From Candidatus Latescibacterota bacterium (GTDB lineage: Bacteria > Latescibacterota > UBA2968): a DNA stretch of 64,000 nt. The stretch's first letter is position 1; every line of letters starts with the position of its first letter. Below are positions 25,413 to 33,015 of the stretch, one piece after another. Location of the stretch: NCBI GenBank assembly GCA_965222605.1, contig OZ244960.1, positions 5,440,001 to 5,504,000 of the forward strand. Reading direction: 5' to 3'. The translations under genes were made by a program, and so were the position numbers. The notes under the pieces are model-generated. The model was given only the letters and a program-made list of their open reading frames with translations. It ran no database searches and was not told the origin of the DNA.

Positions 25413-25751
25413 ATGAATGCGAAAGAACAAAAAATAACAGAATCGCTTTTGGATGAGATCGCAAACAAAATTGTCGAACACTTTCATCCAGATCAGATTA
25501 TCCTCTTCGGCTCTTATGCTTATGGCGAGCCAAAGACCGATAGCGATTTAGATTTGCTCGTCATTATGGATACAGATTTGCGTCCAACAGCGCGAAGTGC
25601 CGCAATTGCTCGCATTTGTCGTCCCAAATACGTTGCGATGGATATTGTCGTGCGTACACCTGAAGAAATTCAAACCCATCTGCAAAACTTTGATCCATTT
25701 CTCGAGGAAATTTTCAAACTTGGACGCACCCTCTACAAATCCGCCGGGTGA
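25413..25751 (+). CDS. Minimal nucleotidyltransferase (MNT antitoxin)
   Basis: ILFGSYAYG..DSDLDLLVI..DIVV. Confidence 0.9.
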   Translation: MNAKEQKITESLLDEIANKIVEHFHPDQIILFGSYAYGEPKTDSDLDLLVIMDTDLRPTARSAAIARICRPKYVAMDIVVRTPEEIQTHLQNFDPFLEEIFKLGRTLYKSAG

Positions 25752-26130
25752 TATACAAGCGTGGGTCTATAAAGCAGAAGAAGACTTTCGCACTGCCACG
25801 ACAATGGTTCGGAAACGCAAAGAACCTGTTCCCGACAATGTGTGTTTTTGCGCGCAGCAGTGTATAGAAAAGTATCTCAAAGCCTTTCTGGTCCTTCATC
25901 GCATTCATTTTCCAAGAATTCACGATCTTTTGGCACTGTTAGATTTCGCTGTAGATATTGATACTGAACTTGAGATACTTCGAGATGATCTGAACTTCCT
26001 GTCCCCATTTGCCGTTGAATTTCGCTATCCTGGGGAAAATGCCACTGTTGAAGAGTCAAAAGAGGCGGTTAAAGTTATGCGGCGTGTTCGACGCACTTTA
26101 AGGGCAAAATTGAAGCTCGAAGATGCATGA
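25720..26130 (+). CDS. HEPN domain protein
   Basis: WVYKAEEDF, CFCAQQCIEKYLKA, RIHDL, EFRYP; TTG start overlapping MNT is inferred. Confidence 0.85.
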   Translation: MDAPSTNPPGDIQAWVYKAEEDFRTATTMVRKRKEPVPDNVCFCAQQCIEKYLKAFLVLHRIHFPRIHDLLALLDFAVDIDTELEILRDDLNFLSPFAVEFRYPGENATVEESKEAVKVMRRVRRTLRAKLKLEDA

Positions 26131-26320
26131 TGTCATAGCTTTCGTGGCATACACACTGGATTATCTGGTCACTTGGTATTGTGCCTATATTGCGAATGGC
26201 GCAATCATTCGTTCTGCGTCTTGACGACTCTGCTATCGTCGGTCAGAAGAGGTCTCGCCAGGCGTGGTGCCCGATTACAATATCGCTTTTGGATGAGATG
26301 GAAAGACAAAGGTGCATGAT

Positions 26321-27868
26321 ATGACCAAACGCAGATTGCCTATTGGTATTCAGACCTTCCGCGAAATCCGCGAGGAAAATTGCTACTATGTCGATAAAAC
26401 TGCCTACATGCAGCGGCTGATCGACGAAGGTAAGCACTACTTTTTATCGCGTCCACGGCACTTTGGCAAAAGCCTGTTTCTGGATACGCTGAAGGAACTG
26501 TTCGAGGGCAATGAACCGCTGTTCGAGGGGCTGTACATCCACGACCACTGGGACTGGTCTGTTCGCTATCCTGTCCTGCGCCTCGACTTCAGCAGCGGAA
26601 ACTATCAGGGGCCGGACGACTTGCGGAAGGAAGTGGCGGTGCAATTGGACGCCCTGGAGAACGAAGCAAAGGTCAGCCCGCGCGACGAAAACGCATCAGC
26701 TCGCTTGCGCCACTTGATGAAAGTTCTCCACGAGCGCAGTGGTCAGCGCGTTGTGCTACTGGTTGATGAAAATGACAAGCCGATCCTGGACGCGCTGGCG
26801 GTGCCCGAAGTCGCCCGGGCCAATCGCGACTTTTTGCACAGCCTGTACGCCACCACTAAAGACTGCGACGCACACATTCACTTCACCTTCCTCACGGGCG
26901 TCAGCCAATTCTCCAAAGCGAGCATCTTCTCTGGCCTCAACAACTTGACCAACATCACGCTGGATACGCGCTACTCGGCTATCTGTGGCTATACCGATGC
27001 GGACCTGGACACGGTGTTCGCGCCCGAGCTTCCCGGCCTGGATCGAGAAGAGATCCGCGACTGGTACAATGGCTATAGCTGGCGAGGAGAGGAGAAGGTC
27101 TATAACCCCTTCGATATTCTTCTGCTCTTCGACAGCCGCGAGTTCGGAGCCTACTGGTTCGAGACCGGCACGCCGACATTCCTCATCGAAACGCTGTTCA
27201 ATCGCCGTGTCAGTTCCCTCGAACTCGACGAGATGATCGGCAGTAGCGATTTGCTATCGACCTTTGATGTGGATGAAATCGCGACCGAGGCCCTGTTGTT
27301 TCAAACCGGGTACCTGACCATTACTGGTGAAGAGAACCTGGGCGGCAAGTCCTTCTATCGTCTGGGCTATCCCAACCGTGAGGTGCGCCAAAGTCTCAAC
27401 GAGAGCCTATTGGACTATCTGGTGAAAGACTCAACGCGTCTTATGGCGAACAGCGTTCAACTCTATCGTCTGCTCGAAGCCAACGACTTCGCCGGTCTCG
27501 AGATCTTATTCCACGCCTTTTTTGCCAGTATTCCTTATGAGTGGTACACCAACAACGACATCGCCAATTTTGAGGGCTACTATGCCAGCGTGTTCTATTC
27601 CTATTTCGCGGGACTGGGACTCAATATTACGGTTGAGGACAGCAGCAGCCATGGACGTGTGGATATGACTGTGTACTTCAACGATAACATCTACCTGTTC
27701 GAGTTCAAAGTGGTAGAGTTGGCGTCTGAGGGAGCTGCGATGGCGCAATTGCAGGAAAAGGGATACGCAGACAAATACCGGGGCCTGGACCAGCCTATTC
27801 ACCTGATCGGGGTAGAGTTTAGCAAGGATACCCGCAATATAACGGCCTTCGAGGTGGCAGGTGCGTGA
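26321..27868 (+). CDS. AAA-ATPase-like protein with C-terminal PD-(D/E)XK nuclease (DUF1703 type)
   Basis: LPIGIQTF, YVDKT, SRPRHFGKS, LVDENDKP, WYNGY, YNPF, YWFETG, GRVD..FEFK. Confidence 0.9.
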   Translation: MTKRRLPIGIQTFREIREENCYYVDKTAYMQRLIDEGKHYFLSRPRHFGKSLFLDTLKELFEGNEPLFEGLYIHDHWDWSVRYPVLRLDFSSGNYQGPDDLRKEVAVQLDALENEAKVSPRDENASARLRHLMKVLHERSGQRVVLLVDENDKPILDALAVPEVARANRDFLHSLYATTKDCDAHIHFTFLTGVSQFSKASIFSGLNNLTNITLDTRYSAICGYTDADLDTVFAPELPGLDREEIRDWYNGYSWRGEEKVYNPFDILLLFDSREFGAYWFETGTPTFLIETLFNRRVSSLELDEMIGSSDLLSTFDVDEIATEALLFQTGYLTITGEENLGGKSFYRLGYPNREVRQSLNESLLDYLVKDSTRLMANSVQLYRLLEANDFAGLEILFHAFFASIPYEWYTNNDIANFEGYYASVFYSYFAGLGLNITVEDSSSHGRVDMTVYFNDNIYLFEFKVVELASEGAAMAQLQEKGYADKYRGLDQPIHLIGVEFSKDTRNITAFEVAGA

Positions 27869-27871
27869 GGG

Positions 27872-28126
27872 GTGAGAAATGCGGATGGAAGCGCGTATTA
27901 TCAATGGATAGAGCTGTGTGAGCAAGCAGGTGTCAAATGCGAAATTCACCAGCTTCGGCACACAGCCGCGACGGAGCTGGTGAACAGTGGCGTGGGTGTT
28001 GGCACAGTGCGCTGGCTACTGGGTCATCGCAATTTGCAGACAACTCAGCGATATGCGAATCTATCCACTGAGACTGTCCGGCAGGAGCTGGATACCTTCG
28101 CGCGTAGAAAAACGCGGACCCGGTGA
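27872..28126 (+). pseudogene. Tyrosine recombinase C-terminal fragment
   Basis: HQLRHT..LLGH..TTQRY present; N-terminal part missing. Confidence 0.8.
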
Positions 28127-28267
28127 TCGCGAATGGACTTCTGAGCAGTAATAAAACGCTTTGTAGATGCATTAATAGGCAGGCGTTGCATGTAAACCGG
28201 ATGTGTTGGTGGCACAGTGGGGATCCTATTTAACAACAGATAAGGTCCCCACCGAATCTCGTCTTCA

Positions 28268-28411: not shown

Positions 28412-28583
28412 CATCACGAGGCATTATAGAATATTAAAAAGTGGAGTTACCCCGTTTTGGATGCTGTTGCCGAATTCCGAATACTGTTCTCAGTGCAACT
28501 AAACATAGGGCTTGCAGAGTCTGTATTCAGGCCACAAACAGCCATCTTTTTAACCGCAGGTCCCTCTTGACCAATGGAGAACT

Positions 28584-28751
28584 ATGAAACGCGATCCTAT
28601 TGTCGAAGAAATTCACCAGACGAGACAGAAACTCCTAAAAGAGTGCGGCGGCGACCTCAACCAGTTAATGGACCGCTTAAAAGCCGCTGAAGTACAAGAC
28701 CGAAGTCGTGTGGTCAGCACCATCTCTGTCCGCAAAACTTCATACTCATAA
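28584..28751 (+). CDS. 55-aa small protein of a type often paired with PIN toxins
   Basis: MKRDPIVEEIHQTRQKLLKECGGDLNQLMDRL; GGAG RBS; missed by ORF track. Confidence 0.6.
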   Translation: MKRDPIVEEIHQTRQKLLKECGGDLNQLMDRLKAAEVQDRSRVVSTISVRKTSYS

Positions 28752-28760
28752 CGACAGTCA

Positions 28761-28899
28761 GCAGGCGTCAAATGCGGGATCCATCAGCTTCGGCACACGA
28801 CCGCGACGGAGCTGGTGAACAGTGGCGTGGGCACGGTGCGCCAGCTACTCGGTCATCGCAATTTGCAGACCACGCAGCACTATGCGAAACTATCCACTG
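28761..28899 (+). pseudogene. Second, diverged copy of the integrase C-terminal fragment
   Basis: Aligns to 27926-28070 (CATCAGCTTCGGCACAC..GGTCATCGCAATTTGCAGAC..TATCCACTG). Confidence 0.85.
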
Positions 28900-28949
28900 G
28901 AGCGGGGTACAATTACGCAAGTAGTTCAACCGTCCTGCATGAACCGGAT

Positions 28950-29106
28950 GCCGACGTGGAAAGAGGTCAGAAAATTGGGCATTGTCATAAATGGAGCCTA
29001 ACTCATCGCGCATCTTCATATAGATATTGCCTTTGGGAAAGGCAGCTTGGGCAATACGAACGGTCTCTTTGGGCACGGGTTCAATTGGATCTTTGGATAG
29101 GGACAT
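28950..29106 (-). pseudogene. IS1182-family transposase N-terminal fragment
   Basis: MSLSKDPIEPVPKETVRIAQAAFPKGNIYMKMRDELGSIY..FSDLFP, then truncated. Confidence 0.75.
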
Positions 29107-29231
29107 GGATTACCTCGGTAAAAGGGAAGAGGTACACGGAACCAGAAACCCTACATGATATGGTCATTATTTAATTCGGCAACAGCATCGTTTTGGTGGG
29201 TACCTTATGAATAGTTAGAAAGGAGGGTGAA

Positions 29232-29708
29232 ATGTCACAGAAATTTAAGATGGGGGTTATTTTTCTTTTATTGGCGTCGTTATTGGGGGTGAATGCTGGA
29301 TGTTTTGGCCTTTTCCGAAAGAGGTATCAGGAGTTAAGTCTTAACTCTGTTCCTACGGGCGCGGATGTTTATAGGACGGCCCCTTATATAGGCTATGTAT
29401 GGGTTGGCAAAACACCTATTACTTTGACTTTGGACCGAAAGGATAAAACTTATGTTTATGTAACGTTAAAACATGTTGGGTATAAAGACTATGTGCTTAC
29501 TATAAAGCACTCTCAAAGTGGAGAGGGTTCTGAAAAAGATAAATTTAGTAATTGGGTTGATACTGGCGGCTCTGGTGACCCGCTCGACGCTCTTGTCGTA
29601 TTAATTGGAGCCGTGGGTTATCTTGTGTATAAGGCGGGGGAAAGCACAGGTAATAGTTTGAAAAAAAGTTTCACTATACAGATGGAAAAATTAGACGTTG
29701 ATTCTTGA
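29232..29708 (+). CDS. PEGA-domain lipoprotein
   Basis: Lipobox NAGC; NSVPTGADVY..VGKTP..KHVGYKD; AGGAGG RBS; AT-rich. Confidence 0.75.
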   Translation: MSQKFKMGVIFLLLASLLGVNAGCFGLFRKRYQELSLNSVPTGADVYRTAPYIGYVWVGKTPITLTLDRKDKTYVYVTLKHVGYKDYVLTIKHSQSGEGSEKDKFSNWVDTGGSGDPLDALVVLIGAVGYLVYKAGESTGNSLKKSFTIQMEKLDVDS

Positions 29709-29721
29709 ACGTCCACGGAAC

Positions 29722-30130
29722 TGGAGTTGCCCCGCTTCAGATGCTGTTGCCGAATTGGTCGAGAGGGAGGTCAGCAGTTGTAAAAACGGCTGTTTGTGGC
29801 CTGAATACAAGCTCTGTATGGACAGAATTCGGAATTCGGCAACAGCATCGCTTCAGTGGAGTATTTAGGGCTTGGGTTTCAAGCCTGTGATTGATGCAGC
29901 TTGCCGTATAGAATCATTACGGCACATGCTTCGTAAGCCATCGGCGCGTGATAGGCGATGGAAGAATGCCTGCGATGCAGATTATACCACCCTTCAGTGT
30001 CAGTTCACATTCAAGGGTGGTGAAGAAACTTGCGCACATCACGTTGTCATAGCAGTCTCCCGCACTCCCATTGAAGGACGCACGCCAGCTTCACGATAAC
30101 GCTTTCCAAATGTGAGGGATATATACGGAT
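29722..30130 (-). mobile_element. Degenerate IS3-family right end with OrfB C-terminal relic
   Basis: Frameshifted FGKRYREAGVRPSMG..GDCYDN..FFTTLECEL..GWYN..RRHSSIAY; TIR TGGAGTTGCCCCGCTTCAGTGGA once the MITE is removed. Confidence 0.8.
29740..29849. mobile_element. 110-bp MITE with IS1182-type ends
   Basis: Same 17-bp TIRs as 28460/29189; 6-bp duplication GCTTCA; body homologous (inverted) to 28460-28575. Confidence 0.9.
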
Positions 30131-30271
30131 TGACTCGGAATACCGCGACACTTCCAGAATGGTGCTCATCTGAACACCATCACCATAAATACCTTCCAAA
30201 ATGCCCTGTGTTTTTCAGGGCTTTTTTTGTGTAATCTCCCTAATAGTCCAATTATTTAATTCTAATCAAAC

Positions 30272-31544: not shown

Positions 31545-32592
31545 ACGCGATGTGTGACTTCAAAATTTTACGAGACCGTCAAAATCCAGCGGGTCTCTGT
31601 AATTGATAATATTGAGAAAGACACACATGGTATGGGTTAAGATTTTGGTATGCCACAGGTTCAATAAGTGCCATGCATCTCGCACTTTCATGCGGGCAAT
31701 ATGTAAACGTTCTGTCAATTGTGCATAAACGGTTTCGACTAATCGCCTTGTGGCTTTCTTCGCTTTGGGCAAAATGAAAGGGGTGCGTTCAGGATTTTCT
31801 TTCATATTGGACTTTAAGGGTGTCTTTATGCGTATGCGGTAGGTATCAAAACACCTTTTTTGCCAGTCCAAGTCCATAAATGCCGCATCTGCCAAGACGG
31901 TTGTCTCTCCCATCGTACCATTCAGGAGTGCGTCTCGGCAGTTCTTGTCGTGTCCATACGCTTGCAGGATCGGCGCGTGGACAATAAGACCATAATCCGT
32001 GATCCTAAGGCCACCCTTAAAGCCAAAATATGCTTCACTTTTGGCGGCACAAAAGCCTTTTGAGGGGGGAGGGAACTCAAAGACTGGCTCTCTTGTAAAT
32101 ATCTTGCGATAATGTCGCCTTGCCAGTTTACAGATCGGTAAGGGTAGCGTATCTATGATCTGGCAGGATGCCTGATGCCCTTCCAAGCTGGCAACAATCC
32201 GCTGTTGCATCCACATCTTGACAACCCACAAATTGGCACATTGACGCACAAAGGCAGGACGGTCTTTCAAAGTGGGAAACCAATCTATGAAGTGTTCTTT
32301 CATCTGCTCATAAAGTTTTTTCTGGCTTGAATATCCCAAAAAGTGACCCACGATTTCTATGGTGAGGCATTCGGCATCACTTAAACCGGGGTCAAAGCCT
32401 GCCCGACGGGGCTTGCCATGCACCTTACAGAAAGCCGGATAGAGTTCGTCTTCAATAAAACAGTAGATTGCAATGACAAAAAGGTCTAAATTATACATCG
32501 GAGGTTCCTTTCGTTGAATGGCTTCTTGTTTAGTGAACAATTCAAGATAGCCGAGGAACCTCTTTTTCGCTATTTAAAGTCACACATCACGT
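31545..32592 (-). mobile_element. IS982-family element
   Basis: TIR ACGCGATGTGTGACTT / AAGTCACACATCACGT; 8-bp duplication AGAATATT. Confidence 0.92.
31560..32498 (-). CDS. IS982 transposase
   Basis: LSDAECLTI, IIDTLPLP, YFGFK, LADAAF, RRLVETV. Confidence 0.9.
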   Translation of the reverse strand: MYNLDLFVIAIYCFIEDELYPAFCKVHGKPRRAGFDPGLSDAECLTIEIVGHFLGYSSQKKLYEQMKEHFIDWFPTLKDRPAFVRQCANLWVVKMWMQQRIVASLEGHQASCQIIDTLPLPICKLARRHYRKIFTREPVFEFPPPSKGFCAAKSEAYFGFKGGLRITDYGLIVHAPILQAYGHDKNCRDALLNGTMGETTVLADAAFMDLDWQKRCFDTYRIRIKTPLKSNMKENPERTPFILPKAKKATRRLVETVYAQLTERLHIARMKVRDAWHLLNLWHTKILTHTMCVFLNIINYRDPLDFDGLVKF

Positions 32593-32672
32593 AGAATATT
32601 ATAATTCTCTACTCGTTCTTTTTTCTTAAACCGATACCCTCACGTCAATCGGGGATCAACTCAATCAGGTTC

Positions 32673-32945
32673 TCACATTACATCCAATATCGCTTGAGGA
32701 TTTTTGTCTGCGATCATCAGTAGTGTCCGGGCTGCACCCGACGGACGACAGCGGCCCTGCTCCCAGTCTTGCAATGTTCGAACAGATACACCCATCAGTT
32801 GGGCAAACTGAGATTGAGAAAGACCCACTTTCGCTCTCGTTTGGGCAATGTCAGGTACTGTGATGATACGACCGTGTTCGCCTCGCTTGATTTCCTGTAG
32901 GCCGGATAGAATCTCTTGACCGATATTTCTATTCCTTTCATTCAT
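32673..32945 (-). CDS. XRE-HTH antitoxin (HigA-2-like)
   Basis: GLSQSQFAQLMGVSVRTLQDWEQGR..PSGAARTLL. Confidence 0.88.
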   Translation of the reverse strand: MNERNRNIGQEILSGLQEIKRGEHGRIITVPDIAQTRAKVGLSQSQFAQLMGVSVRTLQDWEQGRCRPSGAARTLLMIADKNPQAILDVM

Positions 32946-33015
32946 TTTCGATCTCCTCACGGATTTGTTTGAGAATTTGGATAGGAATATTATCTCTCAC
33001 GTTTTTCGTATAGAT
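32938..33015 (-). pseudogene. RelE/HigB-like toxin C-terminal remnant
   Basis: IYTKNVRDNIPIQILKQIREEIENE* overlaps the antitoxin ATG; rest missing. Confidence 0.7.

Follow-up and report, generated by a model that had tools for sequence, protein, structure and literature searches.

When two insertion sequences lie at exactly the same offset within the ends of another mobile element, the question arises whether the position was chosen at each insertion or inherited from a single event. Such a pair, elements A and B, is found in a 64,000-nucleotide stretch of DNA (hereafter the window; G000:C1:5440001-5504000) of the 6.34-Mb single-contig genome of a Candidatus Latescibacterota bacterium (the present genome, G000), where each interrupts the terminal inverted repeat of an IS3-type element. 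A preliminary description of the window had taken them for IS1182-type elements inserted by independent events, and had proposed a site-specific parasite that would immobilise IS3 ends. Our analysis makes it very probable that an IS1182-family insertion sequence, together with its miniature inverted-repeat transposable elements (MITEs), integrates site-specifically into IS3 terminal inverted repeats, between positions 12 and 13 of the repeat.

Two insertions and their target

Re-reading of the window bore out the sequence of both sites, the duplicated hexamers and the flanks as they had been described (Table 1). Elements A and B both start and end with the perfect inverted 17-mer GATGCTGTTGCCGAATT; at both sites TGGAGTTRCCCC precedes the left hexamer and GTGG follows the right one, with the insertion after position 12 of the IS3 tip. 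The 17-mer occurs four times in the window, as against 0.02 times expected, and a count of four was reached in none of 100 shuffles. The 12-mer TGGAGTTRCCCC taken alone is unremarkable in 64 kb, having two matches, a number also given by 11 of 100 shuffles. The weight of the evidence lies in the exact register of the tip with the element ends, which recurs genome-wide.

The nature of the target is apparent from two near-identical copies of 1257 bp in the same genome (3223-4479 and 2371335-2372591). Their OrfB scores 305.4 bits on NF033516 (IS3 family, cut-off 160) and matches rve (1.1e-26), their OrfA matches HTH_Tnp_1 (1.8e-9), and the two frames overlap; a search of this overlap for an A6G or A7 frameshift motif gave only AAAAG, at position 307. 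The right end begins TGGAGTTACCCC (longer reading TGGAGTTACCCCGCTTCGGTGGCG...) and the left end TGGACTTGACCC (longer reading TGGACTTGACCCGTTTTGGTGGGTACC...), the two being imperfect inverted repeats that start with 5'-TG, as the family requires. The right-end tip TGGAGTTACCCC equals that of IS2, TGGATTTGCCCC, at 10 of 12 positions. Judging from these matches, the target element belongs to the IS3 family.

The preliminary description had noticed an OrfB tail behind site B and had called this site alone an IS3 relic. The tail is real: it lies on the minus strand (29882-30090), residues 214-263 of the OrfB of the intact copy match 30001-30164 in tblastn, and there is a weak match to rve_2; in blastn, the relic matches positions 12-136 and 197-318 of the intact copy. 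Site A had been overlooked in this respect. Its segment 29189-29225 is 97% identical (blastn) to positions 1210-1246 of the intact copy, in the left-end leader, and site A is by this similarity the relic of an IS3 left end.

Table 1. Insertion sites A and B and the features next to them, in positions of the window.
Feature	Position	Strand	Basis or remark
Site A, outer 12 bp (tip) of IS3-type terminal repeat, TGGAGTTACCCC	28442..28453	+	matches the tips of the intact IS3 copies
Site A, left target duplication GTTTTG	28454..28459	+	positions 13-18 of the IS3 repeat
Element A, 730 bp, non-autonomous IS1182-type	28460..29189	-	perfect 17-bp inverted repeats
Site A, right target duplication GTTTTG	29190..29195	+	followed by GTGGG
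Site A, inner part of IS3 left-end repeat and leader remnant	29196..29225	+	blastn
Site B, outer 12 bp (tip) of IS3 right-end repeat, TGGAGTTGCCCC	29722..29733	+	
Site B, left target duplication GCTTCA	29734..29739	+	
Element B, 110-bp MITE	29740..29849	.	same 17-bp inverted repeats; no open reading frame of note
Site B, right target duplication GCTTCA	29850..29855	+	followed by GTGGA
IS3 relic: inner right-end repeat, then decayed C-terminal part of OrfB	29856..30164	-	blastn, tblastn
C-terminal fragment of a tyrosine recombinase (context only)	27872..28126	+	Pfam Phage_integrase 4.3e-13; one of four alike in the genome
Short IS3 left-end-like remnant without tip	28199..28256	+	blastn, 81% identity to positions 1186-1243 of the intact copy

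Two further observations concern IS3 itself. A new IS3 tip starts 60-62 bp inside another IS3 right-end relic on two occasions (G000 447099-447161; 5283699-5283759, L003), and from this arrangement IS3 elements may themselves prefer IS3 ends. In G174, the genome of locus L108, an IS3 relative with 69% OrfB identity is present in ten identical copies, all with one in-frame TGA.

The inserted element and its short copies

Members of the IS1182 family, as listed in ISfinder, are about 1.3-1.95 kb long and have one long transposase open reading frame (ORF) and short terminal inverted repeats. The sole full-length copy in the present genome (1096713-1098446) measures 1734 bp and has perfect 17-bp terminal repeats. 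Its transposase is split over two frames of 277 and 301 codons, which score 124.1 and 189.6 bits on NF033551 (IS1182 family) and cover profile positions 9-215 and 245-488, respectively; DUF772 (4.1e-13) is N-terminal and DDE_Tnp_1_6 (3.6e-27) C-terminal, which is the IS1182 layout. Database homologues are single ORFs of 542-579 amino acids. The closest, P0001, is intact, has 546 amino acids, shows 87% identity to the C-terminal half used as query, and passes NF033551 with 336.7 bits (cut-off 270). On these profile matches the inserted element belongs to the IS1182 family, and the pairing of an IS1182-type element with an IS3 end, as originally proposed, stands on NF033551 for the one and NF033516 for the other. 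As the transposase lies in two frames while its homologues are single ORFs, the full-length copy is, from its sequence, a frameshifted pseudogene. No full-length close match was found in the five genomes reached through the loci, and in a search of 168 genomes of the phylum the only close relatives were the copies in G000 and G091, both broken; the intact form of the transposase was found only as the database protein P0001.

The short copies are 108-135 bp long and have only the 17-bp ends in common with the 1734-bp element, their interiors being unrelated to the insertion sequence. In the present and other genomes together, 13 of 15 short copies among the matches listed have a perfect 6-bp duplication. 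These copies, element B included, show all the features of MITEs and can be classified as such. Element B is 95.5% identical to the copy at 4382732-4382840. The MITE copies are 77-95% alike, as against 99.4% for the two near-intact IS3 copies, so that IS1182 activity is probably older than the present IS3 copies. With its only full-length copy frameshifted and its copies diverged to this extent, the family looks extinct in this genome.

Element A is a chimera of four parts, all within 730 bp. The first 116 positions are MITE-like; positions 117-278, with an ORF of 55 amino acids, share 85% identity with genome positions 5696379-5696540; positions 301-493 are a recombinase fragment, whose counterpart beside the full-length copy is external to the element and reversed in orientation; and positions 493-730 correspond to the insertion sequence's transposase-proximal end (242 bp), with the first ~53 transposase codons on the minus strand, 91% identical to residues 1-53 of P0001. 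This structure points to an inversion or deletion driven by an element end. There are four such C-terminal fragments of a tyrosine recombinase, about 85% alike (window 27925-28070 and 28760-28952; G000 1098555-1098753 and 160877-161017), and in the three that were inspected (160877-161017 not among them) they adjoin IS3 or IS1182 debris.

Recurrence and independence of the insertions

Allowing at most one mismatch, the 17-mer is found at 19 places in the genome. Eighteen of these are ends of the element family, and the flank of each is either of the tip type (TGGAGTTRCCCC or TGGACTTGNCCC plus six bases) or of the inner type (six bases, GTGG and the inner repeat). The nineteenth match, at 2381751, was discarded as chance: it has no element-like interior and no IS3 flank, and lies inside an ORF of 357 amino acids. 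In total there are 13 loci, made up of seven complete elements, four solo ends and two degenerate loci (an element end with a 3-nt insertion at 87449, and a tip that directly abuts internal insertion-sequence DNA at 2785746). All 13 are at the same position of an IS3-type end.

Flanks that are conserved at nearly every copy might also belong to the mobile unit itself, as longer composite ends, and not to its target. The flanks on either side of the element do not form an inverted repeat, and among the 37 places where the 22-bp end consensus occurs in the genome there are about 24 clear empty ends, in which the tip, one hexamer and the inner repeat are contiguous. Both ends of each of the two near-intact 1257-bp IS3 copies, which encode OrfA and OrfB, are among them. 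The empty IS3 ends refute composite ends, to which we would give a vanishingly small probability.

The same pattern extends to other genomes. An exact 17-mer scan over one genome per species gave at least 121 loci. Among the matches listed, 35 ends were classified (33 in records titled Latescibacterota, one Poribacteria and one Anaerolineae), and 31 of the 35 have IS3 flanks, 16 of the tip and 15 of the inner type; three of the four others are still IS3-like, with an indel, an offset or extra mismatches, and the fourth, L037, is unrelated. As a control, 95 17-mer hits in other records, without an element-like interior, were scored in the same way, and none fell into the tip or inner class, again among the matches listed. 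A metagenome scan, with at least 120 loci, yielded among the matches listed one true copy, in an IS3 left end, and one chance hit that passed the loose 'inner' threshold. The proposed site-specificity is upheld by the loci here, the ends elsewhere and the controls alike. On an Anaerolineae-titled contig of 512 kb (L100, 180-235), a stretch of 27 nt is identical to the junction of tip and element end and is, by that identity, a solo relic in another phylum.

The offset could nevertheless have been inherited and not chosen, if one ancestral insertion into an IS3 end had given a composite that was then copied by IS3 transposition or segmental duplication. Such a history would account for the same flanking motif at all sites and for flanks shared unchanged by different genomes, such as the inner ones of L051 and L114. 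The hexamers argue against it: they vary between sites and match within them, being identical on both sides in 14 of 17 complete elements (from the present genome and others, among the matches listed), with eight different hexamers across the 14. The element is found in both orientations, the end beside the IS3 tip being of the GGTCGAG type in 6 of the 17 and of the CCGAAT type in most others. Left and right IS3 ends are both hit, with at least five different sequences behind position 23; there is no sequence conservation outside tip position 1, the DNA beyond the tip being unrelated from site to site; and the inserted copies span 108 to 1734 bp. Since the hexamers are specific to the site, both orientations and both ends occur and the outer flanks are unrelated, these comparisons indicate separate events, a pattern that a single inherited insertion cannot give. 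The idea of one ancestor is therefore largely refuted, and we hold it to be highly improbable. The independence first read from the differing hexamers of sites A and B is supported on this much larger base.

Proposed recognition of the target and possible consequences for IS3

The duplications, which cover positions 13-18 (GYTTYR) of the repeat, are consistent with cuts staggered by 6 bp. Either IS3 end can serve as the target, and the element can lie in either orientation. We propose that the DDE transposase itself would read about 22 bp of double-stranded IS3 end sequence, in which CCCC (positions 9-12) and GTGG (positions 19-22) would enclose the 6-bp spacer with imperfect two-fold symmetry. 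Among the matches listed, positions 2, 3, 6, 11, 12, 13, 15 and 16 are invariant in the tip-side flanks (n=31), and positions 19-22 read GTGG in 21-25 of the inner-side flanks (n=27). A short core motif was rejected as the full explanation, CCCC-N6-GTGG (248 occurrences in the genome) and CCCGYTTYRG (181) being far too common.

The specificity for IS3 ends may be a sequence-specific specialisation of an IS1182-family habit, that of inserting in the spacers of short palindromes. Within this family, IS1272 targets inverted repeats with spacers of 4-6 bp, and some members are said to target palindromes (PMC5678879, in excerpt). In another genome of the phylum, an intact relative with 50% identity (L131; ends GATACTGTTGGTAA) is flanked by the 6-bp duplication ATGAAT, and its target is a perfect palindrome with 8-bp arms, GCGAGGAA-ATGAAT-TTCCTCGC.

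Alternatively, the site could be picked out by DNA structure or by a protein and not by sequence read by the IS1182 transposase, the element capturing either a cruciform or hairpin, a mechanism suggested for IS1272, or an IS3 end that is bent or bound by the IS3 transposase. The use of palindromes by relatives (L131; PMC5678879, in excerpt), the occurrence of both orientations and the reported bending of IS2 ends in complexes (PMC3299598, in excerpt) would be in keeping with this, as would the short core motif, which is common elsewhere in the genome yet unused. When 13 natural empty IS3 ends were folded as DNA, their energies (0 to -2.3 kcal/mol) differed from the shuffled means by no more than about one standard deviation, and a stem-loop target was not adopted, as these ends fold no better than their shuffles. 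Many occupied ends, moreover, are short solo relics; yet the IS3 transposase could act on them in trans. On balance we think recognition through structure or a bound protein unlikely.

As to IS3, its ends are plausibly inactivated by the insertions. The end of IS2 consists of an outer cleavage part and an inner part bound by the transposase (PMC3299598, in excerpt). By analogy, an insertion after position 12 would part the cleavage portion from the transposase-binding portion by at least 108 bp, and would probably disable the IS3 end. The 13 occupied ends all lie outside the two near-intact IS3 copies, whose own four ends are empty. In five other genomes, the occupied left ends of L045 and L114 are followed by a nearly full-length but broken OrfB, and the rest are relics. 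The link between occupancy and IS3 decay is suggestive only.

Several points weigh against site-specific integration directed by the IS3 end sequence and against its supposed effect. The folds just mentioned are one of them: the IS3 target makes no better hairpin than shuffled sequence, so that its tie to palindrome targeting consists in its weak symmetry only. The conservation of positions 1-8 may reflect constraint on IS3 itself. Three of the 17 complete elements have no matching duplication (the full-length copy, with GCTTTA/GTTATG, L028 and L037), and at L037 one flank is unrelated to IS3. The related genomes are kin, and counts from them are not independent trials. The full-length copy of G091 (L130, 1400-3180; 1740 bp, its transposase frame 92% identical to P0001 and broken near the C-terminus) lies between two IS3 tips that face each other, and has no duplication; the hexamers next to it are GCTTTA at one end and, when read from the second tip, GTTTTA at the other. 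This looks like recombination between two insertions, and on that account rearrangement after insertion would appear to be common. The difference between occupied and empty ends, of which 0 of 13 and 4 of ~24, respectively, are on near-intact IS3 copies, is not significant, and most empty ends are relics too. Finally, both the choice of the site by the transposase and the disabling of the IS3 end are steps that we infer from sequence.

One might speculate, as a possibility that we ourselves find rather doubtful, that the lineage is an obligate hyperparasite of IS3, whose transposase was re-tuned from generic palindromes to the junction of the cleavage and binding parts, perhaps capturing ends that are occupied by the IS3 transposase. 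In that case every insertion would destroy one IS3 end, and the element would act as a natural brake on the expansion of IS3 in Latescibacterota.

A literature search that covered the main texts of articles found no paper on IS1182-type insertion into IS3 ends. What appears to be new is the IS1182-into-IS3 pairing, the involvement of a DDE enzyme family and the near-exclusive use of another insertion sequence's functional end. To speak of an undescribed system, as had been done, was an overstatement for all but this pairing, which does seem new; the kind of behaviour is already known, both from insertion into end-repeats by IS4321 and IS5075 and from palindrome targeting in the IS1182 family (PMC5678879, in excerpt).

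IS4321 and IS5075 share with the present element the insertion at one fixed position in a different element's end-repeat. They reportedly target the end-repeats of the Tn21 family, and are said to insert in one orientation. The present element, by contrast, inserts in both, makes a 6-bp duplication, uses an IS3-family and not a Tn3-family end, and has a DDE transposase (DUF772, DDE_Tnp_1_6) in place of an IS110-type DEDD enzyme with bridge RNA. In the IS110 family, the DEDD recombinase is guided by the bridge RNA (PMC11208160, in excerpt). Membership in the IS1111/IS110 type, with a DEDD recombinase and a guide RNA, is contradicted by the DDE transposase of the IS1182 family found here; judging from its domains, the element resembles that type in its choice of target and is not a member of it.

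With IS1272 and the other palindrome-targeting members of the IS1182 family, the present element shares the transposase family and an insertion centred on a 4-6 bp spacer between symmetric arms (PMC5678879, in excerpt); L131 has the same geometry in the same phylum, with a 6-bp duplication. Unlike the targets of IS1272, the present site has arms of weak symmetry (3 of 4 positions, CCCC vs GTGG), is without hairpin stability and is one specific sequence of another mobile element. IS1272 reportedly replaces the target repeat and makes no duplication (PMC5678879, in excerpt); the present element makes a clean one of 6 bp. IS231A, too, is a DDE insertion sequence, and its target motif, short and symmetric, happens to be located in the end of another transposon; it differs in its family (IS4), in its 11-bp duplication and in having a preference rather than near-exclusive use. 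Its hot spot is said to lie in the end-repeat of Tn4430. The motif itself is palindromic, GGGNNNNNCCC (PMC2577343, in excerpt).

Near-exclusive use of a site of ~22 bp is rare, most DDE transposases picking their targets loosely, and the transposition mechanism of IS1182 is listed as 'Unknown' in one review (PMC6199540, in excerpt). A pair of related transposases, one targeting a palindrome and the other IS3 ends, would offer a natural case for the evolution of target choice in DDE enzymes. It would also be one of the few natural cases in which a transposon specifically parasitises another, with antagonism of two insertion-sequence families in one genome. For annotation, IS3 ends that are split by inserts would be missed by tools that seek intact repeats.

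Around the two sites, a PEGA-domain lipoprotein-like ORF (29232-29708) begins directly behind the IS3 left-end remnant (region 29196-29708), and its ribosome-binding region is similar to the leader of IS3 OrfA. The neighbourhood (25413-27868 and 31563-32960) is rich in mobile and defence-type genes, among them a nucleotidyltransferase/HEPN pair, an AAA-ATPase_like plus PDDEXK_9 protein, a DDE_Tnp_1_3 transposase and an MqsA-like HTH protein.

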